Source: Acidovorax sp.
GTDB lineage: Bacteria > Pseudomonadota > Gammaproteobacteria > Burkholderiales > Burkholderiaceae_C
Reading direction: 5' to 3'
Assembly (NCBI RefSeq): GCF_047607405.1
Contig: NZ_JASGDA010000088.1
Coordinates: 2,341-66,340, forward strand
Length of the DNA: 64,000 bases
The notes under the pieces: model-generated
What the model was told of the DNA's origin: nothing
The model's database searches: none
Seen by the model: only the letters and a program-made list of their open reading frames with translations
Shown here: positions 2,085-61,389 of the stretch, in pieces
How the letters are laid out: each line of letters opens with the position of its first letter
Position numbering within the stretch: position 1 is the first letter of the stretch
Position numbers and translations under genes: made by a program

Positions 2085-5000
2085 CTATTCGTAAACCACC
2101 GTGGCCGCAGCGGACTGCGCCGTCCAGGCGGCCAGGGCCGCGTCGGTGGGGTAGAAGCGGGCGCTGTCGCCCAATTGCAGTTCGGCCACCGCCGTGTCGC
2201 CTTCGCCCGCGCAGCGCACGCCCATGCGCACGCGCAAACCGTGGTGCAGCACGTCGCCCTCGGGCAGCTCCTCGCGGCGTGGGGGGAATTCGCGCACCAG
2301 GCGCTGCACGTCGGGGCCTTTGTCCTGCACGGCCACGTGCAGGTATTTGCCGAAGCGGCAGCGCGCACCCGCCAGGTCCCACAGCTGCTGCACCTTCACA
2401 CGCAAGCCGCCGCTGAAGTGGTCCTGCTGCAAGCGGCCCGCGATGACCACGAATTCGTCGTCCTTGAGCTGGTTGCGGTAGGTGTTGAGCTGCGCCTCGT
2501 CGGCGGACGCCTCGATCACGCCGGACTTGTCGTCCAGCCGGAACAGCGCCAGCTTGCCGCGCTGGCCGTTGATGACGCGCAGGTCGCTGATGATGCCGGC
2601 CAGCACCTGGGGCTCGCGGCTGTCCAGCAGTTCGTCGATGGGAGTGCGCACGAAACGCCGCACCTCGGTGGCGACCTCGTCGAACAGGTGGCCCGAGAGG
2701 TAGAAGCCGATGGCCGTTTTCTCTTGCGTGAGCCGCTCCTTGATGCCCCAGGGCAGCACGTCCACCAGCGCGGGCTCCTGCGTGCTGGAGCCATGGGCGT
2801 CGTCACCCATCATGTCGAACAGACCGCCCTGGTTCACATTCGCCAGCGTGGCGGCAGCGAATTCGAAGGCGCGGTCGATGGACGCGACCAGCCCGGCGCG
2901 GTTGAGGTGCAGCGAATCGAATGCGCCCGCCTTGATGAGCGCCTCCACCGTGCGCTTGTTGATGCGCTGGCGGTCCACCCGAACACAAAAGTCGAACAGG
3001 CTCTTGAACGGCCCGGTGGTCGATCCCTGCGGCCCCTCGCCCCGCCCTTCGCGGGCGGCGATGATGGCCTCGATGGCCTGCTGGCCCGTGCCCTTCACGG
3101 CGCCCAGACCGTAGCGGATGATCTTGTCGGTGACGGGCTCGAAACGGTACATGCCCCGGTTCACGTCCGGCGGCTCGAAGCTGATGCCGAAGTGCTTGAC
3201 CGCGTCTTCGTACAGCACCTTGAGCTTGTCGGTGTCGTCCATTTCCACGGTCATGTTCGCGCAGTAGAACTCGGCCGTGTAATGCACCTTGAGCCAGCCC
3301 GTGTGGTAGGCCAGCAGCGAGTAGGCAGCGGCGTGCGACTTGTTGAAGCCATAGCCCGCGAACTTCTCCATCAGGTCAAACACCTCGTCGGCCTTCTCCT
3401 GGCTGATGCCCTTTTCCGCCGCGCCCTTGCGGAAGATGGCGCGGTGCTCGGCCATCTCCTCGGCCTTCTTCTTGCCCATGGCCCGGCGCAGCATGTCGGC
3501 GCCGCCCAGGCTGTAGCCGCCCAGCACCTGGGCGGTCTGCATCACCTGCTCCTGATAGACCATGATGCCGTAGGTCTCGGCCAGCACGGGCTCCACGAGC
3601 GGGTGCGGGTACTCCACCGGTTCCTTGCCGTGCTTGCGGTTCACGAAGGTGGGGATCAGGTCCATGGGCCCCGGGCGGTAGAGCGCGTTCAGGGCGATCA
3701 GGTCTTCCAACCGGCTCGGACGCGCCTCCTTGAGCATGCCCTGCATGCCGCGCGATTCAAACTGGAACACGGCCTCGGTCTTGCCGTCGGAGAACAGCTT
3801 GTAGGTGGGGCCATCGTCCAGCGGGATGTGCTCGAACGCGAAGTTCTCCTGGCCCTTGTGGCGCCGGGTGATGAACTCGCGCGCGATCTCCAGGATGGTG
3901 AGCGTGGCCAACCCCAGAAAGTCGAACTTGACAAGGCCGATGGCCTCCACGTCGTCCTTGTCGTACTGGCTCACGGCCGATTCGCTGCCGGGCTGCTGGT
4001 AGAGCGGGCAGAAGTCGGTGAGCTTGCCCGGCGCGATCAGCACGCCGCCCGCATGCATGCCGATGTTGCGCGTCATGCCTTCGAGCTTCTGCGCCATCTC
4101 GATGATGGTGCGCACGTCCTCTTCCTTGCGCACGCGCTCGTAGAGCAGGGGCTCCAGCTCCAGCGCGTAGTTGTTCTTGTCGCCCTCCTTCTTGGGCTCG
4201 GGCGGATAGGCCAGCGTGTAGGTCTGGCCGGGCTTGCCGGGCACCAGCTTGGAGATGCCGTCGCAGAACGTGTAGCTCATGTCCATCACACGGCCCACGT
4301 CGCGGATGGCAGCCTTGGCGGCCATGGTGCCGAAGGTGGCGATCTGGCTGACGGCATCCTTGCCGTACTTCTCCTTCACGTAGTCGATCACGCGGTCGCG
4401 GTTGGACTGGCAGAAGTCGATGTCGAAGTCGGGCATCGACACCCGCTCCGGGTTCAGGAAGCGCTCGAACAGCAGGTTGTACTGCAGCGGGTCCAGGTCG
4501 GTGATCTTGAGCGCATAGGCCACGAGCGAGCCCGCGCCCGAGCCCCGGCCCGGCCCCACGGGGCAGCCGTTGTTCTTGGCCCACTGGATGAAGTCGCCCA
4601 CGATGAGGAAGTAGCCCGGAAAGCCCATCTTGAGGATGGTGCCGATCTCGAACTCCAACCGCTCCACGTAGCGGGGCCGCTGCCTGTCGCGCTCTGCGGT
4701 GTCGGGGTAGAGCAGCGCCAGGCGCTCCTCCAGGCCCTCGAACGACGCCTGGCGGAAGTAATCGTCCATCGACAACCCGCCAGGGATGGGGAAGTCCGGC
4801 AACTGCGGCTTGCCCAGCACCAGCGTGAGGTTGCAGCGCTGCGCGATCTCCACCGTGTTGGCGATGGCCGAGGGCACGTCGGCGAACAGCGCTTCCATCT
4901 CCGCAGACGACTTGAAATACTGGTCGCGCGTGAACTTGCGCACGCGGCGCGGGTTGGCAAGAATCTCGCCCTCCGCGATGCAGATGCGGGCCTCGTGCGC

Positions 5001-5627
5001 CTCGTAGTCGTCCGCCGTGGCGAACTGCACCGGGTGCGTGGCCACTACGGGCAGGTTCAGCCGCGCCGCCAACTGGACGGCGGCCACGACGTGGCTTTCG
5101 TCATCGGCACGGCCCGCGCGCTGCAGTTCGATGTAGAAGCGGTGCGGAAACAGCCCCGCCAGCCGCAATGCCAGGCTGGCGGCGCCAGGTTCATCACCCC
5201 GGAGCAGCGCCTGCCCCACCGGCCCTGCCTGCGCGCCCGCCAGCAGGATCAGCCCTTCCGACAGTTCCTCCAGCCAGGCCCAGGTACACAGCGGCTGGTT
5301 CTTGACCACGTTGCGCGTCCAGGCGCGGGCGAGCAGTTCCGACAAATGAAGGTATCCCTGGCGGCTCTGCACCAGCACGACGATGCGCGACGGCGCTGCG
5401 CCCGCATCGCCCTCCAGAAAAATCTCGGCCCCCAGGATGGGCTTGACGCCCTTGCCACGGGCTTCCTTGTAGAACTTGACCGCGCCAAACAGGTTGTTGA
5501 GATCGGTGATGGCCAGCGCGGGCTGGCCGTCGCGGGCGGCGGCCTTGGCCACCTCGTCGATGCGGTTGGTGCCGTCAACGACGGAAAATTCTGTGTGCAG
5601 GCGCAAGTGGACAAACATGGCGGCCAT
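2085..5627 (-). CDS. dnaE: DNA polymerase III subunit alpha
   Basis: The ORF 2085..6545 contains [16 protein letters not shown] (PHP domain) through the C-terminal OB region. The start was trimmed to MAAMFVH at 5627 (or 5618), giving about 1180 aa. Confidence 0.95.
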
Positions 5628-5684
5628 TGTAGAAAGGGCGCGCCGGTACAATTCCCGATCCTGTTTTGCTGAAAGCTGCTTTCG

Positions 5685-6482
5685 ATGCCGCGTTACTCCC
5701 TGCCACTCGTTTCCGCTCTGCTGGCCATCGGCCTGTTGGCGGGCTGCTCCAGTACCAGCGATGACAAAACGGCCAACTGGAGCCCCAACCGCATCCACTC
5801 GGAAGCCCAGGACGAACTCAACAGCGGCTCCTACGACAAGGCCATTCCGCTGTACGAGAAACTCGAAGGCCGCGCCGCAGGCACCCCGCTGGCCCAGCAG
5901 GCCCAGATCGACAAGGCTTACGCGCAGTACAAGTCGGGCGAGAAGGCCCAGGCCATCGCCACGCTCGACCGCTTCATGAAGCTGCACCCCGCCAGCCCCG
6001 CGCTCGACTACGCGCTCTACCTGAAAGGGCTGGTCAACTTCAACGACAACCTGGGCCTGTTCTCGTTCATCTCGCGCCAGGACCTGTCCGAGCGCGACCA
6101 GAAAGCAGCCAAGGACTCGTTCGAGTCCTTCAGCGAACTGGTCACGCGCTTTCCCGATTCGCGCTACACGCCGGACGCGCGCCAGCGCATGACCTACATC
6201 GTCAACTCGCTGGCGCAGTACGAGGTACACGTGGCACGCTACTACTTTCAGCGCGGTGCCTACGTAGCGGCCATCAACCGCGCGCAGGTGGCGCTGTCCG
6301 ACTACCAGGGCGTGCCCGCGCTCGAAGAAGCGCTGTACATCCTCATCCAGTCCTACGACGCCCTGGGCATGACCCAGTTGCGCGACGATGCGCGCCGGGT
6401 GATGGACGCCTCGTACCCGCAGAGCGCCTACCTGCGCAGCGGCTTCAAGGAGAAGTCGGATCCGTGGTGGAAGTTCTGGTGA
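5685..6482 (+). CDS. bamD: outer membrane protein assembly factor BamD (lipoprotein)
   Basis: It has a lipobox LLAGCSS and TPR-like BamD/YfiO sequence (YEKLEGRAAGTPLAQQAQIDKAYAQYK). It sits divergent to dnaE. Confidence 0.88.
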   Translation: MPRYSLPLVSALLAIGLLAGCSSTSDDKTANWSPNRIHSEAQDELNSGSYDKAIPLYEKLEGRAAGTPLAQQAQIDKAYAQYKSGEKAQAIATLDRFMKLHPASPALDYALYLKGLVNFNDNLGLFSFISRQDLSERDQKAAKDSFESFSELVTRFPDSRYTPDARQRMTYIVNSLAQYEVHVARYYFQRGAYVAAINRAQVALSDYQGVPALEEALYILIQSYDALGMTQLRDDARRVMDASYPQSAYLRSGFKEKSDPWWKFW

Positions 6483-6515
6483 GCGCGCTGGGTTAGCAAT
6501 GCGGTGCAATGCCGC

Positions 6516-6568
6516 AAAAATGATAGCTGCTAGCACCCGACCCATAAGCGCTAGAGGCCAATTTGACT
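6516..6568 (+). repeat. GATAGCTG-hairpin-AGGCCAATTTGA repeat, copy A
   Basis: Sequence AAAAATGATAGCTGCTAGCACCCGACCCATAAGCGCTAGAGGCCAATTTGACTC. It lies between convergent bamD and the MBL hydrolase gene, and its end abuts the TTA stop codon at 6570. Confidence 0.85.
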
Positions 6569-6569
6569 C

Positions 6570-7676
6570 TTATTTCTGCAGCCGCCACCAGCGGCTGCCC
6601 TCCTGCGGCGCGTTCATGTCCACGCGCTCGCCCATCAGGGGCGTGGCCACGCGCACGCCGCGCTCGGCGGCGTAGCGCAGCACCTGCTCGAACGGGTCGT
6701 CCCAGGCGTGCATCGCCAGGTCGAACGTGCCGTTGTGGATGGGCAGCAGCCAGCGCCCGCGCAGGTCCTGGTGCGCCTGCACGGTTTCGGGCGGGTGCAT
6801 GTGGACGTAGGGCCACTGCGCGTTGTAGGCGCCGGTTTCGATCAGCGTCAGGTCGAAAGGGCCGAAACGCTGGCCGATCTCGGCAAAGCCCTCGAAGTAG
6901 CCGCTGTCGCCGCTGAAGAACAGGCGAAAGGCGTCGTCCTGGATGACCCACGAGCCCCACAGCGTGCGGTTGCCGTCGGTGAGGCTGCGGCCCGAGAAGT
7001 GCTGCGTGGGCGTGAGGGTGAGTTTCAGGCCCTCCACCTCGGTGCCCTGCCACCAGTCGAACTGCGCAATCTTGCCCTGCGGCACGCCCCAGTCCACCAG
7101 CCGGTCGCCCACGCCCAGCGGGGCGAGGAACTGCTGCACCTTGCCCGCCAGCTGCCGGATGGCGGCGTGGTCGAGGTGGTCGTAGTGGTCGTAGTGGTCG
7201 TGCGACAGGATCACGGCGCGGATGGGCGGCAGTTCGTCGATGCCGATGGGCGGCGCATGGAAGCGCTTGGGGCCCATGAACTGCACGGGCGCGGCACGGT
7301 CGCTGAACACCGGGTCGGTCAGCCACCACTGGCCGCGCAGCTTCATCAGCAGCGTGGAGTGGCCCAGGCGGTACAGGCTGCGGTCGGGCGCGGCGTCCAG
7401 GTCGGCGCGGGTCAGGCGCTGGATGGGTATGGGCGACGGGGGCACGGTGCCTGCGGGCTTGTTGAACAAAAAGTCCCACCACACGCGCAGCGTGGATTCG
7501 GGCATGTCGCCGGGGCCGGGCGGGCGCGGGTTATGAAAGCGCCCTTCGTGCGACTGGGGGGATGCGGCGTAGTCGCCGATAGGGGGTTGCAGCATGGCGT
7601 AGGTGGCCCCGGCGATGAGTACAACGAGGGAAAGCCCGCCGACGAGGCGGGCAGCGGATGCAAAACGCACGTTCAA
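6570..7676 (-). CDS. MBL-fold metallo-hydrolase (NAPE-PLD-like)
   Basis: It has the SHDHYDH metal-binding motif, an N-terminal TM/signal segment, and a complete 368-aa ORF. Confidence 0.8.
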   Translation of the reverse strand: MNVRFASAARLVGGLSLVVLIAGATYAMLQPPIGDYAASPQSHEGRFHNPRPPGPGDMPESTLRVWWDFLFNKPAGTVPPSPIPIQRLTRADLDAAPDRSLYRLGHSTLLMKLRGQWWLTDPVFSDRAAPVQFMGPKRFHAPPIGIDELPPIRAVILSHDHYDHYDHLDHAAIRQLAGKVQQFLAPLGVGDRLVDWGVPQGKIAQFDWWQGTEVEGLKLTLTPTQHFSGRSLTDGNRTLWGSWVIQDDAFRLFFSGDSGYFEGFAEIGQRFGPFDLTLIETGAYNAQWPYVHMHPPETVQAHQDLRGRWLLPIHNGTFDLAMHAWDDPFEQVLRYAAERGVRVATPLMGERVDMNAPQEGSRWWRLQK

Positions 7677-9887: not shown

Positions 9888-9896
9888 GCCAGAGTT

Positions 9897-9953
9897 TCAA
9901 GCCTTTTTGCCCTCTGGCGCTTATCCATAAAGCACCAGGCGCTATGATTTTTG
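9897..9953 (-). repeat. GATAGC-hairpin repeat, copy B (variant)
   Basis: The minus strand reads AAAAATCATAGCGCCTGGTGCTTTATGGATAAGCGCCAGAGGGCAAAAAGGCTTGA. It lies between convergent genes. Confidence 0.75.
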
Positions 9954-9961
9954 ATGAAATC

Positions 9962-10693: not shown

Positions 10694-13318
<2,625 letters not shown>

Positions 13319-21136: not shown

Positions 21137-21154
21137 CTCCCGCCGTGATACTTC

Positions 21155-21207
21155 TTTTTTGATAGCTACTAGTGCTTGCTGCATAAGCGTTGGAAGCCAA
21201 TTTGGCT
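21155..21207 (+). repeat. GATAGCTG-hairpin repeat, copy D
   Basis: Sequence TTTTTTGATAGCTACTAGTGCTTGCTGCATAAGCGTTGGAAGCCAATTTGGCT. Confidence 0.8.
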
Positions 21208-21237
21208 TAAATTCTTTTCATTCTCGGAGGCAACATC

Positions 21238-29378: not shown

Positions 29379-30431
29379 TTACTGGAACTGCGACAGGAAG
29401 CGGATGTCGCCGTCGAAGAACAGGCGCAGGTCGTTCACGCCATAGCGCAACATGGTCAGCCGGTCGGGCCCCATGCCGAAGGCGAAGCCGATGTACTTTT
29501 CAGGGTCGAGCCCCATGTTGCGCACGACGTTGGGGTGGACTTGCCCACTGCCCGCCACCTCCAGCCAGCGGCCCGCCAGCGGCCCGGTCTGGAACTGGAT
29601 GTCGATCTCAGCGCTCGGCTCGGTGAAGGGGAAGAAGCTGGGGCGAAAGCGCAGCACCAGGTCGTCGCTTTCAAAGAACGTGCGGCAGAAGTCGGTGAAC
29701 ACGACCTTCAGGTCCTTGAAGCTCACGTTCTCGCCAATCCACAAACCCTCGCACTGGTGGAACATGGGCGAGTGCGTGGCGTCGCTGTCCACGCGGTAGG
29801 TGCGGCCCGGGGCGATGACGCGGATCTCGGGCATGGGCTGGCCGGCATCCAGCAGCGCGCGGTGCGTCTTGACGTGCTGCACCGCGTGGCGGATCTGCAT
29901 GGGGCTGGTGTGCGTGCGCAGCAGGTTGGGGGCGGTGGCGGTGCCGCCCTCCACGTAGAAGGTGTCGTGCATGGAACGCGCGGGGTGGTCCTCGGGCGTG
30001 TTCAGCGCGGTGAAGTTGAACCAGTCGGTCTCGATCTCGGGGCCCTCGGCCACGTCGAAACCCATGGAGCCGAAGATGCCCTGGATGCGCTCCAGCGTGA
30101 GCGACACGGGGTGCAGCCCGCCCTGCCCGCGCTGGCGGCCCGGCAGGCTCACGTCCAGCGCCTCGGCCTTCAACTGCGCTTGCAATTCAGCGTCGGCGAG
30201 CTGCTGGCGGCGCGCGGTCAGAGCGGCCTCGATGGCCTGTTTGGCCACGTTGATGGCGGCGCCACGGGACTTCTTCTCGTCCACCGACAGCTGGGCCATG
30301 CCCTTCATGAGTTCCGTCACGCGGCCCGACTTGCCCAGAAACTGCGCCTTGGCGTTTTCCAGCTCGGCGGGGGTGGCGCTTTGCGCGAACAGTTGCGCCG
30401 CGCTCTCGACCAGGGAATCCAACTCGTTCAT
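29379..30431 (-). CDS. pheS: phenylalanine--tRNA ligase subunit alpha
   Basis: It is a 350-aa ORF with the [11 protein letters not shown] and [14 protein letters not shown] motifs. Confidence 0.96.
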
Positions 30432-30452: not shown

Positions 30453-30494
30453 GAAAATAAACAAGGGCTAGCGCCTTTTCAAGCCCTAGCCCTT
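30453..30494 (-). terminator. terminator-like hairpin between rplT and pheS
   Basis: The minus strand has AAGGGCTAG, a 14-nt loop, CTAGCCCTT, then GTTTATTTTC. It ends 21 nt before the pheS ATG. Confidence 0.5.
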
Positions 30495-30524
30495 GCTGTT
30501 ATTGCGCAAGCAGCTATCAAAACG
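30463..30524 (-). repeat. GATAGCTG repeat, copy F (variant 3' half)
   Basis: The minus strand reads TTTTGATAGCTGCTTGCGCAATAACAGCAAGGGCTAGGGCTTGAAAAGGCGCTAGCCCTT. Confidence 0.65.
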
Positions 30525-30542
30525 ATAGCCGCTATCGTGAAC

Positions 30543-34141: not shown

Positions 34142-37100
34142 TCACCCCACCCACCTGCGCGCATTGCGCCAGATGCGCATCCAGGGGCTGAGGGCGCTCT
34201 TGTCGCCGCTCGTCCAGCTCATCTGCACGTTGCGGAACACGCGCTCGGGGTGGGGCATGAGGGCGGTGAAGCGGCCGTCTGCCGTGGTCACGCTGGTGAG
34301 GCCGCCGGGGCTGCCGTTGGGGTTGAAGGGGTACTGCTCGGTGGCGGCGCCGTGGTGGTCCACGTAGCGCATGGCGGCGATGGCCTTGTCTGCGTTGCCA
34401 CGGTACTTGAAGTTGGCGTAGCCCTCGCCGTGGGCGACGGCGATGGGCAGGCGGCTGCCGGCCATGCCTGCGAAGAACAGGCTGGGGGAGTCGAGCACTT
34501 CGACCAGCGACAGGCGGGCCTCGAAGCGTTCGCTCTGGTTGGTGGTGAAGCGCGGCCAGTCCTCTGCGCCGGGGATGATGTCGGCCAGTTCGGCGAACAT
34601 CTGGCAGCCGTTGCACACACCCAGACCAAAGGTGTCGGTGCGGCCGAAGAAGCCCTGGAACTGGTCGGCCAACTGTGGGTTGAAGGTGATGGAACGCGCC
34701 CAGCCGATGCCCGCGCCCAGCGTGTCGCCATAGCTGAAGCCGCCACAGGCGACGACGCCCTTGAAGTCCTGCAACTGGACGCGACCCGTTTGCAGGTCGG
34801 TCATGTGGACGTCGAACGCCTCGAAGCCTGCTTCGGTGAAGGCGTAGGCCATTTCGACGTGCGAGTTGACGCCCTGCTCGCGCAGGATGGCGACCTTGGG
34901 CTTTGCCAGGTTGAGGAAGGGGGCGGCTACGTCTTCGGCGGGGTCGAAGGTCAGGTGCAGGTGCAAGCCGGGGTCGGCGGGCTCGCCCGCTGCGGCGTGC
35001 TCGGCATCGGCGCAGGCGGGGTTGTCGCGCTGCTGGCAGATCTTCCAGCTCACAGCGTCCCAGACTTGGTGCAGGTCGCTCAAAGATGCGCTGAACACGG
35101 CCTTGGCGTCGCGCCAGATTTGCAGTTCGCCTTTGCCTGCGTCGATGGTGGATGAGGCCGGGCGGGTTTTGCCGATGAAGTGGCTCCACTTGGACAGGCC
35201 GTGCTCGCGCAAGGTCTGCATGACTTCGTTGCGCTCTGCGGTGCGCACTTGCAGCACGATGCCGAGTTCTTCGTTGAACAGGGCCTTGAGCGTGAGTTCT
35301 TCGCGGCGGGCGCTGACTTGTTGCGCCCAGTTCTTGGCGTCGCCCGTTTCCATGCGGCTGTCGCTGATGCCGTCGCCTTCGGTGACGAGCATGTCCACGT
35401 TGAGCGCCACGCCCACGTGGCCTGCGAAGGCCATTTCGGCCACCGCCGCGAGCAGGCCGCCGTCGCTGCGGTCGTGGTAGGCCAGGATGTGCCCTTTAGC
35501 GCGCAGGGCGTTGACGGCGTTGACGGTGTGGATGAGGTCTTGCGCGTCGTTGAGGTCGGGCACGCCATCCTTCTCAGGACTGCCGCTTTGCTCCAGCGTC
35601 TGGCCGAGGATGCTGCCGCCCATGCGGCATTGGCCTTTGCCCAAGTCAATGAGGACGAGGGTCGTATCCTCTTCCGTCGCGTCGAGTTGCGGCGTGAGCG
35701 TGCCGCGCACGTCGGAGAGCGTCGCGAAGGCGCTCACGATCAGGCTGACGGGGGATGTGACCTTTTTCTTCTCCGCGCCTTCGCTCCACTGCGTGCGCAT
35801 CGACAACGAGTCCTTGCCCACGGGGATGCTGATGCCTAGAGCGGGACACAGCTCCATGCCCACGGCCTTGACGGTGGCGTACAGGTCGGCGTCCTCGCCC
35901 GGCTCGCCGCAGGCGGCCATCCAGTTGGCGGAGAGTTTGACGCGCGGCAGTTCAATGGGCGCGGCCAGCAGGTTGGTAATGGCCTCGGCCACGGCCATGC
36001 GGCCCGAGGCGGGCGCGTTGAGGGCGGCCAGCGGCGTGCGCTCGCCCATGCTCATGGCCTCGCCCGCGAAGCCCTTGTAATCGGCCAGCGTGACGGCGCA
36101 GTCGGCCACGGGCACCTGCCAGGGGCCGACCATCTGGTCGCGGTGGGATAGCCCCCCCACCGTGCGGTCGCCGATGGTGATGAGGAAGCGCTTGGACGCC
36201 ACGGTGGGGTGCGCCAGCACGTCGATGACGGCTTTTTGCAGCGGCACGCCGGTCAGATCCATGGGCGCGAAGGTGCGCTGCACGGTCGTCACGTCGCGGT
36301 GCATCTTGGGCGGCTTGCCCAGCAGCACGTCCATGGGCATATCGACCGGGTACTTCTGGTCGCCTGCTGCCACGGCAGTGTCTGCCAGCACCAACTGGCG
36401 CTGCTCGGTGGCCGTGCCGATGACGGCGAAGGGGCAGCGCTCGCGCTCGCAGAACGCCTGGAACAAAGGCAGCGATTCGGGCGCGATGGCGAGCACGTAG
36501 CGCTCCTGGCTTTCGTTGCTCCAGATTTCCTTGGGGGCCATGCCCGATTCTTCGAGCGGCACGGCGCGCAGGTCGAACCGCGCACCGCGCCCGGCATCGT
36601 TGGTCAATTCAGGGAAGGCGTTGGACAGCCCGCCCGCGCCCACGTCGTGGATCGCCAGGATGGGGTTTTGCGCGCCCTGCGCCCAGCAGTGGTTGATGAC
36701 CTCTTGCGCGCGGCGCTCGATCTCGGGGTTGCCGCGCTGCACCGAGTCGAAGTCCAGCTCCGCCGCGTTGGTGCCCGTCGCCATGGAACTGGCCGCGCTG
36801 CCGCCCATGCCGATCCGCATGCCGGGGCCGCCCAGCTGGATGAGCAGCGAGCCTGCGGGGAATTCAATCTTCTTGGTCAACTCTGCGTCGATCACGCCGA
36901 CGCCGCCCGCGATCATGATGGGCTTGTGGTAGCCGCGCTGGATGCCGCCCACGTTCTGCTCGTATTCGCGAAAGTACCCCGCGAGGTTGGGCCTGCCGAA
37001 TTCGTTGTTGAACGCCGCGCCGCCCAGCGGCCCCTCGACCATGATCTGCAAGGGGCTGGCGATGTGCTCGGGCTTGCCCACGGTGCTGCCCCAGAGCTTG

Positions 37101-38161
37101 GAGACGGTGAACCCCGTCAGCCCCGCCTTGGGCTTGGAGCCGCGCCCCGTCGCGCCCTCGTCGCGGATCTCGCCGCCCGCGCCGGTGGACGCACCCGGGA
37201 AGGGCGAGATGGCCGTGGGGTGGTTGTGCGTTTCCACCTTCATCAGCACATGGTGGGTTGCACTACTCTTTTGATAGCTGCTTGCGCCCGTCCCATCTGC
37301 GCTAGAGGCCATTTTGGCTATGAATCTCTCCACCGTATGGCCTTCCATGATGGAGGCGTTGTCCGAATACGCCACCACCGTGTGCTGCGGCGCGAGTTGG
37401 TGCGTGTTGCGGATCATGCCGAACAGCGATTTGTCCTGCGCCACGCCGTCGATGGTGAACTGGGCGTTGAAGATCTTGTGGCGGCAGTGCTCGCTGTTGG
37501 CCTGGGCGAACATCATCAGCTCCACGTCCGTGGGGTTGCGCGCCAGGGCGGTGAAGGCGTTGACCAGGTAGTCGATTTCGTCGTCGGCCAGCGCCAGGCC
37601 GAAGCGGGCGTTGGCGGCTTCCAAAGCCGTGCGGCCACCACCGAGAACGTTGACGTGCTCCATGGGCGCGGGTTGCAGCTCGGTGAACAGCGCAGCGGCG
37701 GCGGCGCGCTCCATCACCACGGATTCGGTCATGCGGTCGTGCAGCAGCGCGGCGACCTGGGCCTTTTGCCCGTCGTCCAGTTCAGGCGTCTTGCCCAGCA
37801 GGCCGGATTTGAGAGCGACGCGGTATTCGGTAATGCGCTCCACACGGCGGATGGCGATGCCGCAGTTGCGCGCAATATCGGTGGCCTTGCTGGCCCAGGG
37901 CGACAGCGTGCCCAGGCGTGGCGTGACGATGATGGCCGCGCCATCCGCCGGGCCTGTGTAGGGTTCGCCATAGGCCAGCAGCGCGGACAGCCGCTCCTGC
38001 TGGGCGGGCGTGGGGGCCGCGTCCGTCACCACCAGATGCACGAAGCGCGCCGCGATGCCCTCGATCTTGGGGTGGATGGCTGCCAGGGCGGGTTGAAGCT
38101 GCTGGGCGCGGAAGGCGCTGAGGGCATTGCCGCCCTCGAAGGTGCTGATGTGGTGGGTCAC
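34142..38161 (-). CDS. purL: phosphoribosylformylglycinamidine synthase (large single-chain form)
   Basis: It is a 1339-aa ORF with [36 protein letters not shown] and a C-terminal glutaminase domain GVCNGCQM. Confidence 0.97.
37266..37322 (+). repeat. GATAGCTG-hairpin repeat, copy G, inside the purL CDS (antisense to purL)
   Basis: Sequence CTTTTGATAGCTGCTTGCGCCCGTCCCATCTGCGCTAGAGGCCATTTTGGCTATGA. It is read by purL as [19 protein letters not shown]. Confidence 0.85.
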
Positions 38162-42419: not shown

Positions 42420-42426
42420 ATACTCC

Positions 42427-42479
42427 TGTTTTGATAGCTGTTAGTGCTTTCTGGATAAGCGCTAGAGGCTGATTTGACC
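42427..42479 (+). repeat. GATAGCTG-hairpin repeat, copy H
   Basis: Sequence TTTTGATAGCTGTTAGTGCTTTCTGGATAAGCGCTAGAGGCTGATTTGACCA. It starts 8 nt after the glnD stop and ends at the def stop codon (TTA at 42481). Confidence 0.88.
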
Positions 42480-42480
42480 A

Positions 42481-43020
42481 TTAATCGTCTTCGGCGGCGC
42501 TGATGCCCGGGAACAGCACCTCGGTAAACCCGAACTGCGTGAAGTCGCGCACCCGCATCGGGTACAGCTTGCCGATGAGGTGGTCGCACTCGTGCTGCAC
42601 CACGCGGGCGTGAAAGCCGTCCACCGTGCGGTCGATGGCATCGCCATACGGGTCGAACCCGGTGTAGCGGATGCGCGACCAGCGCGGCACCTTGCCGCGC
42701 AGGCCGGGCACCGAGAGGCAGCCTTCCCAGTCCTCTTCTTCCTCATCGCCCAGCGGCGTGATGACGGGGTTGCACAGCACCGTGGGCGGCACCAGGGGCC
42801 GGTCGGGGTAGCGCGGGTTGCGGTCGCCGGAGCCGAAGATCACCAGCTGCAAGTCCACGCCAATCTGCGGCGCCGCCAGGCCCGCGCCGTTGACGGCCCG
42901 CATGGTCTCGAACATGTCGCGCACCAGCAGGTGCAGCGCGTCGGTATCGAACGCGGTCACGGGCTGGGCCACGCGCAGCAGGCGCGGGTCGCCCATCTTC
43001 AGGATGGTGTGGACGGTCAT
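42481..43020 (-). CDS. def: peptide deformylase
   Basis: It has [16 protein letters not shown] and HECDHL motifs. The start was trimmed to [12 protein letters not shown]. Confidence 0.95.
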
Positions 43021-43520: not shown

Positions 43521-43596
43521 TGGCTCCTCAACCTGGGCTCGAACCAGGGACCTACGGATTAACAGTCCGGCGCTCTACCGACTGAGCTATTGAGGA
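43521..43596 (-). tRNA. tRNA-Asn (anticodon GUU), copy 1
   Basis: The minus strand reads TCCTCAATAGCTCAGTCGGTAGAGCGCCGGACTGTTAATCCGTAGGTCCCTGGTTCGAGCCCAGGTTGAGGAGCCA. Confidence 0.92.
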
Positions 43597-43611
43597 ATGA
43601 TCGGCACTTGG

Positions 43612-43653: not shown

Positions 43654-43729
43654 TGGCTCCTCAACCTGGGCTCGAACCAGGGACCTACGGATTAACAGTC
43701 CGGCGCTCTACCGACTGAGCTATTGAGGA
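43654..43729 (-). tRNA. tRNA-Asn (anticodon GUU), copy 2
   Basis: Its 76 nt are identical to copy 1. Confidence 0.92.
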
Positions 43730-43740
43730 ACAAGACTTAG

Positions 43741-48886: not shown

Positions 48887-49720
48887 TTACTTGTGCAGGC
48901 CGCGCTCGTCCGGCTCGTCGGTGGACGTGCTGATGACGCTGGTGTGCAGCCCCTTGGCCTTGCGCCAGGCATAGACGCCGTAGCCCGAAAGGCCGTAGCC
49001 CACGAACACGGCGAACAGCACCGTGGGCGGGTGGATGTTGATGACGGCGATGCCCAGTGCAATGAGCACGATGGCGGCGAAGGGCACGCTCTTTTTCATC
49101 TGCACGTCCTTGAAGCTGTAGAACGGCACGTTCGTCACCATGGTCAGGCCCGCGTAGAGCGTGAAGGCGAACATGATCCAGGTGATCTGCGTCCAGGTCA
49201 GCCACCCATCCTCGCCGGGGCGCACGCCCAGTTCGGTCATCAGCCAGATGAAGCCCGCGACCAGCGCGGCAGCGGCGGGCGACGGCAGGCCCTGGAAGTA
49301 GCGCTTGTCCACCACGCCCGTGTTCACGTTGAAGCGCGCCAGCCGCAGCGCCGCGCACGAGCAATAGACAAAGGCCGCTATCCAGCCCCAGCGGCCCAGG
49401 CCGTGCAGCGACCAGATGTACGCGATGAGCGCGGGCGCGGCGCCAAAGGACACCATGTCGGACAGCGAATCCATCTGCTCGCCGAAGGCGCTTTGCGTGT
49501 TGGTCATGCGCGCCACGCGCCCGTCCAGGCTGTCGAGCACCATGGCGCAGAACACGCCCACGGCGGCGGAGTCGAAGCGCCCGTTCATCGCCATCACGAT
49601 GGCGTAGAAGCCGCCGAACAGCGCCGCCAGCGTGAACAGGTTGGGCAGTATGTAGATGCCCTTGCGGCGCTTGCGCACCACCACGCCGGGGTTCTCGGCG
49701 GGATCGTCTCCGTCATGCAT
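48887..49720 (-). CDS. pssA: CDP-diacylglycerol--serine O-phosphatidyltransferase
   Basis: It has the CDP-alcohol phosphatidyltransferase motif DSLDGRVAR...D..SD. The ATG at 49720 is preferred over the TTG at 49723. Confidence 0.9.
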   Translation of the reverse strand: MHDGDDPAENPGVVVRKRRKGIYILPNLFTLAALFGGFYAIVMAMNGRFDSAAVGVFCAMVLDSLDGRVARMTNTQSAFGEQMDSLSDMVSFGAAPALIAYIWSLHGLGRWGWIAAFVYCSCAALRLARFNVNTGVVDKRYFQGLPSPAAAALVAGFIWLMTELGVRPGEDGWLTWTQITWIMFAFTLYAGLTMVTNVPFYSFKDVQMKKSVPFAAIVLIALGIAVINIHPPTVLFAVFVGYGLSGYGVYAWRKAKGLHTSVISTSTDEPDERGLHK

Positions 49721-49770
49721 CAAATCGGCCTCCAGCGCTTATCTGGCAAGCGCAAGCAGCTATCAAATTC
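49721..49770 (-). repeat. GATAGCTG-hairpin repeat, copy I (abuts the pssA start)
   Basis: The minus strand reads AATTTGATAGCTGCTTGCGCTTGCCAGATAAGCGCTGGAGGCCGATTTG, then ATG. Confidence 0.88.
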
Positions 49771-49818
49771 ATAGTTTCTGGCGGCCCCGGCGCTGCGCGG
49801 GGCAAAGGGCCAATTTTA
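49771..49818 (+). repeat. diverged repeat copy, head-to-head with copy I
   Basis: Sequence ATAGTTTCTGGCGGCCCCGGCGCTGCGCGGGGCAAAGGGCCAATTTTA. It retains the ATAG head and the GGGCCAATTT tail. Confidence 0.45.
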
Positions 49819-49879: not shown

Positions 49880-51583
<1,704 letters not shown>

Positions 51584-56665: not shown

Positions 56666-56673
56666 ATCGCTCT

Positions 56674-56725
56674 ATTTTTGATAGCTGACAGCGCACGCCG
56701 GATAAGCGCCAGCGGCCAAAAACAC
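56674..56725 (+). repeat. GATAGCTG-hairpin repeat, copy K
   Basis: Sequence TTTTTGATAGCTGACAGCGCACGCCGGATAAGCGCCAGCGGCCAAAAACAC. It ends at the glnB stop codon (TCA at 56726). Confidence 0.8.
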
Positions 56726-58755
<2,030 letters not shown>

Positions 58756-58787
58756 ACGGGAGCGGGGATGGGGAAAGTTCGCGTGAA

Positions 58788-59183
58788 TTATGCGGGCGAT
58801 GGTCGCGCGTCCCACGGATCCAGCAGTTGGACTCCGCACGCGGCGAAATCACCGCCGTTGCGTGTCATCAGCACCCGACCGTGGGCCAGCGCCGAGGCCG
58901 CGATGATGGCGTCCGGCAGCTTGATGCGGTGCTGCTCGCGCAACTGGATGGTTTGCACGATCACCGCTTCCGCGAGTGGGATTTCCTGCATGTGCGACAG
59001 CAGGTTCTGGGTGAGTTGCCGCGAAGCGGGCGTGTGGCCCGCCCAGCCCATGACTTCAATGCGGGTGATGGACGAATAGCTGGCCCCGGCGACGACCGCG
59101 TTTTCAAAGCAAGCCCTGGCAGCGGGCGGCAACTGCCCGTTGATGTAGTAGATGAGGATGTTGCTGTCAACCAGCACGCTCAT
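58788..59183 (-). CDS. vapC: PIN-domain toxin (VapC-like)
   Basis: It reads MSVLVDSNILIYYING...LPDAIIAASALAHG. Confidence 0.8.
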   Translation of the reverse strand: MSVLVDSNILIYYINGQLPPAARACFENAVVAGASYSSITRIEVMGWAGHTPASRQLTQNLLSHMQEIPLAEAVIVQTIQLREQHRIKLPDAIIAASALAHGRVLMTRNGGDFAACGVQLLDPWDARPSPA

Positions 59184-59434
59184 GGCCGCCCGACCCATTC
59201 GCCGCGCAGGGCCGCCAGATCGGCGTCGATGGCCTGCACGGAATGCACGGGTTCCACACAACTCCAGGCGTTGGACAAGGCTTGCCTGCGCGCATCGCCC
59301 GCTGCGGTGCGCACAGGCGCATCTTCCTGCGCCAGCGGCAGGATGATGACTTCGCCACGCTGGCGGCGCAAATGCTCAGGCACCTGCACGGCGTCGGGCA
59401 GGTGGTCGTAGATTTCACGCAGTATGGTTGTCAT
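59180..59434 (-). CDS. putative antitoxin (AbrB/VapB-like)
   Basis: It starts MTTILREIYDHLPDAVQVPEHLRRQRGEVIILPL. A 4-nt ATGA overlap links it to the PIN gene. Confidence 0.6.
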   Translation of the reverse strand: MTTILREIYDHLPDAVQVPEHLRRQRGEVIILPLAQEDAPVRTAAGDARRQALSNAWSCVEPVHSVQAIDADLAALRGEWVGRP

Positions 59435-59496
59435 CCGTTCGCTCCATTCGTGGCGACTGTGGTTCGATTGTGCGGCAAAGCGCTGCCTGTGGCACG

Positions 59497-60795
59497 ATGG
59501 CCCGCCCCGCACTCCGGCCCCGACACACCTTGCCCGCCTACGAACTGCGCATCGCGGATGCCCCCGCCTCCATCGACGCCGCCGCCTGGAACGCCCTGCT
59601 CGCGCGGCAAAGCCAGCCCACGCCCTTCATGCGGCACGAGTACCTGGCCGCCCTGCACGAGAGCGGCAGCGCCACGCCGCGCACCGGCTGGGTGCCGTGC
59701 TTCATGACGCTGTGGCAGGGCAGCGAGTTGATCGCCGCCTGCCCGCTGTACCTCAAGAGCCATTCCTACGGCGAATACGTGTTCGACTGGGCCTGGGCCA
59801 GCGCCCACGAGCAGCACGGCGTGCCCTACTACCCCAAGGCCGTGGTGGCCGTGCCCTTCACGCCCGTGCCGGGCACGCGGCTCATGGCGCGCGACGGCCA
59901 GGCGCGGGCGCTGCTGGTGCAGGCACTGCGGCAATGGTGCGGGCAAGAGGGCGTGTCGTCCGCCCACGTGCTCTTTGCCAGCGACGATGATGTGCAGACC
60001 TGCTCCGACCAGCAGCTCATGCTGCGCCACACCGTGCAATTCCACTGGCAGAACATGGCCCCCACGCTCCCCGCTGCGCGTGGTTCGCTGCCCCCCGAGG
60101 GGGCGCTCGCTGCCTTGGGGCGGCCCGGCGGCATCTCGGGCTACCGCGACTTCGAGCACTTCCTCGCCAGCCAGTCGCAGGACAAGCGCAAGAAGATCCG
60201 CCAGGAGCGCCGCCGCGTGGCGGACGCGGGCGTCGGCTTCCGCTGGGCGCGGGGTGCGGACATCCGCGCGGCGGACTGGGACTTCTTCTACCGCTGCTAC
60301 GAGCGCACCTACCTGGAGCACGGCAACCCGCCCTACCTCACGCGGGACTTCTTCGCGCGCATGGCGGCGCACCTGCCCGAGGCGTGGCTGCTGTTCATCG
60401 CCGAGCGCGGCGGACGGCCGATTGCTAGCAGTTTGATAGCTGTCAGCACCCTTCCATCAAGCGCTGAAGGCCAAAAAGACCATGAAACGCTGGTGGCCTA
60501 TGGCCGCTACTGGGGGGCGCTGGAGCGGGTGGACTGCCTGCACTTCGAGGCGTGCTACTACCAGCCTTTGCAGTGGTGCATCACCCACGGCGCGCAGCGC
60601 TTCGAGGGCGGCGCGCAGGGTGAGCACAAGATGGCCCGCGCCCTGCTGCCCGTGCAGGCCGCCAGCGCGCACTGGCTGGCGCACCCGGCGTTCGCCGACG
60701 CGGTGCAGCGCTTCCTGGCGCGCGAGGGCGAGGGCGTGCAGGACTACCTGCAGGCGCTGCGGTCGCGCAGCCCGTTCAAGCCGCCTGTGGCCTGA
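59497..60795 (+). CDS. FemAB-like GNAT family protein (DUF482 / PF04339-type)
   Basis: It has PFMRHEYLAALHESG, KSHSYGEYVFDWAWA, YGRYWG, LHFEACYY and GAQGEHKMARA motifs. Confidence 0.8.
   Translation: MARPALRPRHTLPAYELRIADAPASIDAAAWNALLARQSQPTPFMRHEYLAALHESGSATPRTGWVPCFMTLWQGSELIAACPLYLKSHSYGEYVFDWAWASAHEQHGVPYYPKAVVAVPFTPVPGTRLMARDGQARALLVQALRQWCGQEGVSSAHVLFASDDDVQTCSDQQLMLRHTVQFHWQNMAPTLPAARGSLPPEGALAALGRPGGISGYRDFEHFLASQSQDKRKKIRQERRRVADAGVGFRWARGADIRAADWDFFYRCYERTYLEHGNPPYLTRDFFARMAAHLPEAWLLFIAERGGRPIASSLIAVSTLPSSAEGQKDHETLVAYGRYWGALERVDCLHFEACYYQPLQWCITHGAQRFEGGAQGEHKMARALLPVQAASAHWLAHPAFADAVQRFLAREGEGVQDYLQALRSRSPFKPPVA
60430..60482 (+). repeat. GATAGCTG-hairpin repeat, copy M, inside the FemAB-like CDS (sense)
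   Basis: Sequence GTTTGATAGCTGTCAGCACCCTTCCATCAAGCGCTGAAGGCCAAAAAGACCATGA. It is read as SLIAVSTLPSSAEGQKDH. Confidence 0.85.
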
Positions 60796-60804
60796 GTTTG
60801 CTTT

Positions 60805-60858
60805 GTTTTTGATAGCTGCCAGCGCTTGCCCATCAAGCGCTGGAGGCCGATTGGACCA
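60805..60858 (+). repeat. GATAGCTG-hairpin repeat, copy N
   Basis: Sequence TTTTTGATAGCTGCCAGCGCTTGCCCATCAAGCGCTGGAGGCCGATTGGACCA. It has a perfect 10-bp stem CCAGCGCTTG/CAAGCGCTGG and ends at the ppa stop codon (TTA at 60859). Confidence 0.9.
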
Positions 60859-61389
60859 TTATTTCTTCTGGTAGCTGGCGATACCGTCGGTGATTTCCTT
60901 CTTGGCGGCTTCGACGCCTTCCCAGCCCAGCACCTTGACCCACTTGCCCTTCTCCAGGTCCTTGTAGTGCTCGAAGAAGTGGGCGATGGCGTTGCGGCGC
61001 ATGGCGTTCACGTCGTCGATGCTCTTCCAGTGGTCGTACATGGGCAGGATCTTGCTGGTGGGCACGGCGATGACCTTGCCATCGACACCGGCCTCGTCCT
61101 CCATCATCAGGATGCCCAGGGGGCGGCAGGGCACGACCACGCCGGGGTGCAGCGCGTAGGGGGTGATGACGAGCACGTCCACCGGGTCGCCGTCGCCCGA
61201 CAGCGTCTGCGGCACGTAGCCGTAGTTGGTGGGGTAGTGCATCGCCGTGGTCATGAAGCGGTCCACGAAGATGGCGCCCGACTCCTTGTCCACCTCGTAC
61301 TTGATGGGGTCGGAGTTCATCGGGATCTCGATGACGACGTTGAAGGTCTCGGGGGCGTTCTTGCCGGGGGTGACGTTATTGAGGGACAT
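60859..61389 (-). CDS. ppa: inorganic pyrophosphatase (soluble, family I)
   Basis: It has [22 protein letters not shown] and DGDPVDVLV motifs. Confidence 0.96.

Follow-up and report, generated by a model that had tools for sequence, protein, structure and literature searches.

Can a repeat that normally lies between genes become part of an essential enzyme? The question is raised by purL, the gene for a large single-chain formylglycinamidine ribonucleotide (FGAM) synthetase, in a stretch of 64,000 nucleotides of contig NZ_JASGDA010000088.1 (positions 2,341 to 66,340), which we call the window and whose own numbering is used below. Palindromic repeats that have colonised essential genes in frame are known above all from Rickettsia, and reductive evolution inside a host cell is often invoked there to explain them. 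A first-pass annotation of the window had proposed that a full copy of one of its intergenic repeats lies in frame inside purL. Our analysis finds that the purL patch is a genuine, in-frame member of the window's intergenic repeat family, and that the finding is broader than first seen, extending to several genes and many genera.

The purL coding sequence (CDS; 34142..38161, minus strand) is intact, with 1339 codons. Its GC content at third codon positions (GC3) is 0.88, as is typical of real genes in this genome, and its product matches the Salmonella PurL structures with an E value of 5e-119. Among 185,579 species representatives the closest genomic relative is Acidovorax temperans DSM 7270, with 93% PurL identity over 340 aa, and the source of the window appears from such sequence comparison to be an Acidovorax-like member of the Comamonadaceae. 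The 56-nt string quoted in the annotation is present exactly once in the window, and zero dinucleotide-preserving shuffles matched it. It does lie antisense inside purL, at 37268-37323 on the plus strand, the coordinates first given for it (37266-37322) being off by 1-2 bases.

About 12 copies of the repeat were found across the window by repeat finding and a motif scan, a density of about one per 6 kb. The repeat is 64-70 nt long and runs from a conserved head, TTTGATAGCT, through a hairpin of 9-12 bp and the tetranucleotide GGCC to an A/T run. We made an ungapped 64-column alignment of ten window copies, leaving out those in purL and nadE, and built from it a covariance model, R1, with which the window was scanned with filters off. 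In this alignment ATAGC is invariant within TTTGATAGCT, and a stem of 9+3 pairs with a 7-nt loop, the GGCC box and the A/T run follow. Standard pairs fill 83% of the stem cells across the training copies versus 27-48% when the 3' partners are slid, and three of the stem pairs vary on both sides. Extending the element past the 64 nt of the model adds only some 5 informative nt at the 5' side, and the scores of the purL flanks are not significant. R1 gives its own training copies 52-74 bits. At 37265-37328 it finds the purL copy, which was not among them, with 48.3 bits (E 1.7e-8), which bears out the claim that this is a real copy of the repeat.

The GATAGCT-first orientation of the purL copy is on the plus strand, i.e. 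antisense to the gene, and the copy is read in the frame that we label A1. It spans codons ~279-299, and the element-encoded stretch, at about residues 281-298, is rich in Ala, Ser and Gly. The 1339-aa open reading frame (ORF) runs through the patch, so no stop interrupts it, as the annotation had said, and the peptides that it had listed for other copies read in this antisense frame (KLASSAYGSGASSYHF, KSASSAYPESTNSYQN and a third one of 16 residues) are correct. The patch was also rightly called AT-rich, with a GC content of 0.48-0.57 in 60-nt windows versus 0.63-0.85 in most of the surrounding gene. The segment is variable and N-terminal to a conserved motif, and it was expected to be shorter in E. 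coli PurL. The alignment with Salmonella PurL (PDB 1T3T) indeed runs through the site with a gap, the window protein being 7 residues longer.

The purL site among relatives

We compared 80 purL genome loci and 120 protein hits. At the same purL site R1 scores 63 bits in an Acidovorax metagenome-assembled genome (MAG; L001), 42 bits in A. temperans (L002), 28-40 bits in L020, L021 and L024 (Polaromonas; 40 in L020), 38 bits in Curvibacter sp. AEP1-3 (L005), and 20-31 bits in L003, L023, L025 (Ottowia), L019, L034 and L043. The orientation, frame and codon position of the patch are identical in its bearers across many Comamonadaceae genera. A protein search further found dozens of PurL fragments with the pattern AK[MST]A......[SA].SY[QE]K, labelled Acidovorax, Giesbergeria, Comamonas, Rhodoferax, Polaromonas and others. 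Being present in many genera and in independent assemblies, the patch is not an artefact and did not arise recently in this genome, and the escape by way of an assembly error, which the annotation had left itself, is closed.

Non-Comamonadaceae Burkholderiales do not have the patch. It is missing from the Rubrivivax-, Roseateles-, Herbaspirillum-, Ralstonia-, Paraburkholderia- and Cupriavidus-type PurL sequences, and also from interspersed Comamonadaceae such as Paracidovorax, Limnohabitans, Hydrogenophaga, Ramlibacter and Variovorax. In a neighbour-joining tree of PurL from which the loop had been removed, the bearers do not separate from the non-bearers. Two irregular loci were seen. In a Variovorax MAG (L043, 3430-3594) 12 nt at the tail of the purL copy are duplicated in tandem (GCC AAA TTT GAA GCC AAA TCG, read as AKFEAKS). 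In another MAG (L046) and in protein P0110, PurL is without about 45 residues including the entire loop (...CSPQH|MKVETHNHP), by a real deletion or an assembly error.

A clean indel of 13-18 aa relative to close relatives had been predicted, and this prediction failed: A. temperans and the Acidovorax MAG carry the same copy, and relatives without the patch are only 0-8 aa shorter, the loop of Paracidovorax having the same length as that of the bearers and an unrelated sequence. The spacing from the conserved Phe of the ERF motif to a conserved Tyr is 17 residues in bearers and 12 in most non-bearers and outgroups (Rubrivivax, Herbaspirillum), with a range of 9-20 overall. The Tyr codon of the element (AGC TAT CAA) coincides with a Tyr whose conservation extends from Salmonella to the Burkholderiales, and the other end of the element overlies ERF-x-A-[KR]. 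Because the element ends lie over ancestral conserved residues and the net gain is small, the event in purL looks like a replacement of part of the old loop, by insertion and deletion or by a patch guided by short homology. The junction found in most lineages differs from that of Polaromonas (...SYQSYSASEDVLTH, ...SYQ followed by SYSASEDVLTH), where the ancestral Tyr is kept beside the element Tyr. The integration into purL may have occurred more than once.

The codons of the patch have not been adjusted to those of its hosts. In 16 bearing purL genes the 21 codons of the element have a GC3 of 0.48 versus 0.82 in the flanks, while the same columns in non-bearing genes have 0.78 versus 0.85. 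In 11 representatives of different clades the element Tyr codon is TAT in 11/11; at four invariant Tyr positions of the flanks TAT is used by 3-4 of the 11, and TAT usage in the flanks is 21%. The element Lys codon is AAA in 9 of these representatives versus 0-2 in the flanks, and the Phe just before is TTT in 10 versus 1-6. By our own arithmetic the probability of TAT in 11/11 is ~3e-8, if the lineages were independent draws from the codon usage. Since these rare AT-ending codons persist across genera, the purL copies are either younger than the genera that bear them or maintained in their nucleotides. The hairpin region of the window's purL copy has an identity of 0.63 to the window's intergenic copies and of 0.61 to the purL copies of other genera, and such pairwise identities are uninformative on orthology versus concerted evolution. 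The copy of L001 retains an 8-bp stem.

Coding copies at other sites

A second gene of the window carries the repeat in the sense orientation. The FemAB_like (PF04339) GNAT gene at 59428-60795 on the plus strand (455 aa, Pfam E 9e-132) contains a copy at 60427-60490, also on the plus strand, with 60.8 bits, which is read in frame S0 as SSLIAVSTLPSSAEGQKDHET. An in-frame copy is present at the matching site in at least 16 of 80 metagenomic homologues (R1 21-50 bits), and it is lacking in short forms, such as IASSLIGLDPGRGVAYGRYWG, and in distant homologues from Ralstonia, Pseudomonas, Halomonas and Sinorhizobium. The net difference between bearers and empty sites is 11-13 aa. The head of the element overlies an ancestral IASSLI(A/G), which reads ATT GCT AGC AGT TTG ATA GCT in bearers versus ATC GCC AGC AGC CTG ATC GSC in empty genes. 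The rare Ile codon ATA is found in 16/17 bearers with flanks of 63-99% protein identity, while ATA accounts for 6% of the flank Ile codons, and the GC3 of the loop is 0.35-0.68 versus 0.70-0.93 in the flanks.

The gene nadE (57097-58839, minus strand; GC3 0.90) has a look-alike at 57980-58043 on the plus strand, antisense to the gene and in frame A2, where a run of A/T-ending codons is seen. R1 gives it 17.5 bits (E 0.28), and repeat finding also grouped it in a window repeat family, D1. The NadE length changes there by +3 or -1 aa relative to the solved structures 4F4H and 5KHA. This stretch is probably a degenerate in-frame copy. A stretch of alaS (10694-13318, minus strand) at 11857-11920 was considered as well and rejected: it is AT-rich and its peptide recalls that of S0, yet R1 has no match there at E <= 10, and the encoded residues are ordinary conserved ones of AlaRS. 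It reads, in rare A/T-ending codons, AAA ATC ATA GCT ATC TAT GTA GAT GGG ACA AGC GCT GCA GCC CTA AAA, with CATAGCT within.

In one clade of the Comamonadaceae purL itself has a second site, in the linker before the glutaminase domain, where the copy is in frame (HVYMPNKALALVERAQAAMETV) and scores 22-45 bits. These copies lie at 5834-5897 in L019, 5876-5939 in L023, 13129-13192 in L081 and 13202-13265 in L082, and in 3/4 loci the second-site copy outscores the first-site copy of the same gene. The same linker, between RDNP and REQGVN, is replaced by other lineage-specific stretches, 9-18 aa longer, in L025, L030, L033, L024, L026 and L069 (e.g. ...DLQQNMALAQQNIAGAAINN...), which may come from other repeat families.

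The frames used by the coding copies are not arbitrary. When the ten training copies and those of purL and nadE are translated in six frames, most of them read through the core without a stop in S0, A1 and A2. Frame S1 is closed in every copy by TGATAG, and S2 and A0 are closed as a rule. Just the three open frames are used by the coding copies, S0 in the FemAB_like gene, A1 at the first purL site and A2 in nadE and at the second purL site, and this restriction to stop-free frames is what selection against truncated proteins predicts.

Probable entry into purL and persistence

We consider it very probable that a palindromic repeat resembling REP (repetitive extragenic palindromic) sequences became part of the purL coding sequence in a stop-free frame, at the tip of a variable beta-hairpin, where it would be carried along as a translated passenger. 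The loop length at this site differs among orthologues. In an AlphaFold model of PurL residues 1-600, made with a 98-sequence alignment, residues 269-287 and 290-310 are two adjacent long strands with a two-residue turn at Ala288-Asp289, and the local predicted local distance difference test score (pLDDT) is 66-78. The element is predicted to encode the far half of this beta-hairpin, whose second strand leads into a conserved catalytic motif of 10 residues, and an extension of the hairpin tip would be a structurally cheap change.

The peptide would be tolerated because all that it does is to extend the tip of a two-stranded beta-hairpin that is there already and that varies in length among PurL proteins, and in all likelihood it is a passenger without a new function. 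Integrations in stop-containing frames or in constrained parts of a protein would be removed by selection, so that only stop-free copies in loops would be seen. The integration would have swapped out part of the old loop, with a short similarity between element end and target as a guide or with a deletion after insertion, since the net gain is ~5 aa and the element ends encode the ancestral ERF...Y. What keeps the AT-rich nucleotides in place across genera could be gene conversion from other copies, integration time after time, recombination that spreads them horizontally, or selection acting on the DNA.

Several results weigh against this explanation. No clean pair of a filled and an empty site was found among close relatives in the 80 loci and 120 protein hits, and the net gain is far below the element length. 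R1 finds no signal at the site in the patch-free purL loops of 14 loci, even with filters off, so that loss by decay is not demonstrated. No target-site duplication is seen in the window, where the mean length of the best direct repeat in the flanks is 3.4 nt versus 3.9 nt in shuffled flanks, and the Pfam scan of ten neighbouring ORFs gave no transposase, including no REP-associated tyrosine transposase (RAYT). In 16 purL copies 63.5% of the hairpin cells pair, with no excess over shuffles, and shuffled sequence folds at least as well as the mRNA strand of the window's purL copy (z +0.85). The hairpin is therefore not the feature that is maintained. The R1 training set had unknowingly taken in one coding copy (60427-60490). 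The AlphaFold model has a mean pLDDT of 63 with the C-terminal half absent, a modest quality due to the missing partner subdomains.

Two histories could have led to the present distribution, and we give them roughly equal weight. One integration in an early Comamonadaceae ancestor may have been inherited vertically, patch-free lineages having lost the copy by deletion and GC drift; we would grant this a little less than an even chance. All purL copies have their codon position, orientation and frame in common. They also have purL-specific features outside the intergenic consensus, e.g. GAT/GAC (Asp) for TAT, and AAA ATG GCC in Acidovorax, L003 and L005, and these shared substitutions argue for common descent of many copies and against their repeated arrival. 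At least eight independent losses would however be needed on the PurL neighbour-joining tree, and the patch-free loops share the outgroup spacing from F to Y (12 residues) and have no R1 signal. Old neutral copies should moreover have lost their AT-rich third positions, which is not so. Yet the patch is stable throughout the Acidovorax/Giesbergeria group, and by eye L015 and L008 resemble shortened, GC-shifted versions of it.

Alternatively, the patch may have arisen repeatedly, at a permissive site resembling the head motif, or it may spread between genera by homologous recombination of bearing alleles, a history that likewise falls somewhat short of half of our confidence. It would fit the patchy distribution with bearing and non-bearing sister taxa, the un-ameliorated codons in every lineage and the existence of at least two junction types, that of the majority and that of Polaromonas with its extra ancestral Tyr. 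The head TTGATAGCT lies over a similar ancestral sequence in both genes (GCT TAY CAA, antisense, in purL and AGC CTG ATC GC in the FemAB_like gene), but two or three sites are too few to test for a preference for targets like TTGATAGC. The second-site purL copy of one clade is probably younger, as it scores higher. On the other side, the contigs around purL in eight other genomes (11-21 kb each, ~150 kb in total) have no intergenic copy, and we know of no mobility enzyme for this repeat family, which we count against recurrent integration. Four of these eight genomes bear the patch and four do not, and since neither group has an intergenic copy there, they are uninformative on a link between intergenic copies and retention of the patch.

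It appears improbable to us that the copy is kept for a function of its DNA or RNA in purL, such as protein binding, RNA processing or pausing, or an uptake or recombination signal, with the peptide as a by-product. In two genes the rare AT-ending codons at the element ends are retained across genera well beyond the expectation from codon usage; the conserved ends also encode conserved residues, however, so that selection at the protein level accounts for some of this signal. In the purL copies the main structural feature of the family, its hairpin, is not maintained. The head motif was never found isolated in the window, TGATAGCT being seen solely within full elements, and Rfam has no match to the element at gathering thresholds over the whole window and none at E <= 1 over 60380-60900. 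A consensus scan of the element found no terminator-like T run. A resemblance by chance or composition, or an assembly artefact, has nothing but the short length of the patch in its favour and is practically negligible in view of the E value of 1.7e-8 under a model excluding this copy and of the patch in many independent isolate genomes and MAGs.

Beyond the entry of a passenger repeat into purL, we speculate that, throughout a whole family of free-living bacteria, the repeat has spread into loops of conserved housekeeping proteins (two sites in PurL, FemAB-like and NadE) and that its sequence is actively maintained there, so that these copies would belong to a living selfish family and not be fossils. 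This stronger claim is doubtful, and we hold it only tentatively. Maintenance would here proceed by gene conversion, by re-integration guided by the similarity between head and target, or by recombinational spread between genera. If it is true, the family would supply proteins with small beta-hairpin modules time and again. The persistence of AT-rich element nucleotides in conserved genes across genera is in any case a feature worth follow-up. The patch is a family-specific signature in PurL and FemAB-like proteins, and can mislead analyses of alignments, codon usage and horizontal transfer.

Intergenic copies and known repeat families

The window has nine intergenic copies, most of them directly 3' of stop codons. 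Several fill a short gap between convergent genes (42425-42488, 56672-56735 and 60803-60866), and others are located between operon genes. The GC content of the element is 38-52%, and the copies occur singly. REPs are extragenic by definition, and the classical REP head is GTAG. Our element is like the REP/RAYT system in being a short imperfect palindrome of high density, mostly 3' of genes, in convergent gaps or in operons, with a short head beside the stem and no target-site duplication. It differs in its head, GATAGCT with the invariant ATAGC in TTTGATAGCT, in its single copies without doublets or clusters, and in the lack of a RAYT gene among the ten window ORFs scanned. No inverted doublets of the kind known as REPINs or bacterial interspersed mosaic elements (BIMEs) were found in the window, where the nearest pair of copies is a direct one, 376 nt apart.

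The Rickettsia palindromic elements (RPE; Ogata et al. 2000, summarised in PMC10969869 and PMC3184786) are ~105-150 nt long and lie both between genes and in frame in unrelated housekeeping genes. The parallel to them drawn in the first-pass annotation is apt, as one repeat has intergenic and in-frame coding copies here too. Like RPE, the window element is a short palindromic repeat that keeps the reading frame of the CDSs, and in both cases the insert may be tolerated at permissive positions of the protein. It is however only 64-70 nt long, it uses three frames in both orientations with a small, replacement-like net length change, and its host is a free-living, high-GC betaproteobacterium in contrast to the obligate intracellular alphaproteobacterium that hosts RPE. 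Membership in the RPE families by sequence (RPE-1 to RPE-10), judged from length and host alone, is implausible.

BRE (Hot et al. 2011, PMC3110155) is a beta-proteobacterial repeat of ~90 bp in Bordetella and in Comamonadaceae (Polaromonas, Delftia, Acidovorax, Rhodoferax), with some copies wholly in CDSs. It is often in tandem arrays, and its copies in List S1 have ~69% GC and read ...CCCCCTCGGGGGGCAGCAAGC...GCGCAGCGTGCGGGG (PMC3110155). Both are small repeats of Comamonadaceae that lie partly within coding sequences, but their sequences are unrelated, ours having 38-52% GC, TTTGATAGCT with a hairpin, and single copies. ERIC, BOX, Correia and the Coxiella QMITE1 are non-autonomous small repeats capable of in-frame fusion with host ORFs (PMC10969869). 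Compared with MITEs (miniature inverted-repeat transposable elements) the window element is much shorter, has no terminal inverted repeats and no target-site duplication above chance, and because of the latter it is not a MITE. It is also not like the uptake signal sequences (USS) or DNA uptake sequences (DUS), since its core never stands alone in the window.

Our literature search by topic and by literal sequence, in which the Polaromonas JS666 MITE was not compared, gave no description of this family. The element behaves like RPE and appears to belong to a different family, undescribed as far as this search shows. Here the phenomenon recurs with an apparently unrelated repeat, in Comamonadaceae that are free-living and high in GC; at least two conserved genes are affected, and the copies are shared across genera. 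As Acidovorax is culturable, it offers a tractable system for the entry of elements into coding DNA, for AT-rich codons that resist GC pressure and for the neutrality of encoded hairpins.

Of the intergenic copies, the one at 6514..6577 (plus strand, R1 71.3 bits) lies between the 3' ends of two convergent genes. The longest dnaE ORF (2085-6545, minus strand, 1486 aa) overshoots, as its PHP domain begins at residue 313, and a plus-strand ORF at 5685-6482 with a GC3 of 0.89 overlaps the overshoot, so that this copy is intergenic and not in a dnaE extension. The copy at 9891..9954 (minus strand, 62.2 bits) is in a convergent region upstream of the alaS stop codon. At 21153..21216 (plus strand, 68 bits) a copy follows 17 nt past the stop codon of a GntR-family gene and precedes an aldehyde dehydrogenase gene, both assigned by Pfam. 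Another is found at 30463..30526 (minus strand, 52.1 bits), upstream of the ORF 29379-30431 in the gene string downstream of infC.

The copy at 42425..42488 (plus strand, 73.9 bits) fills a gap of 61 nt between the convergent glnD and def and has the canonical hairpin of 9+5 bp with -17.1 kcal/mol; the two gene names come from synteny with related loci, glnD (875 aa) being a putative assignment and def also recognised in the ORF scan. The strongest match, at 60803..60866 (plus strand, 74.4 bits), takes up the space that separates the FemAB-like gene from a convergent ORF, with a hairpin of -23.3 kcal/mol (z -2.65). The copy at 56672..56735 (plus strand, 62.8 bits) lies 7 nt past the stop codon of a LOG-family gene (Pfam) that is convergent with nadE, and the one at 49709..49772 (minus strand, 68.5 bits) just upstream of a CDP-alcohol phosphatidyltransferase gene (Pfam). 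The last, at 51516..51579 (plus strand, 67.7 bits), is between two minus-strand ORFs, and an Rfam ilvH RNA motif (RF02993; 51450-51517, minus strand, 94.6 bits) directly adjoins it. Apart from this family, the window has two identical 77-nt segments at 43521-43597 and 43654-43730, 133 nt apart, each of which holds a minus-strand tRNA gene (Rfam, 68.7 bits each).

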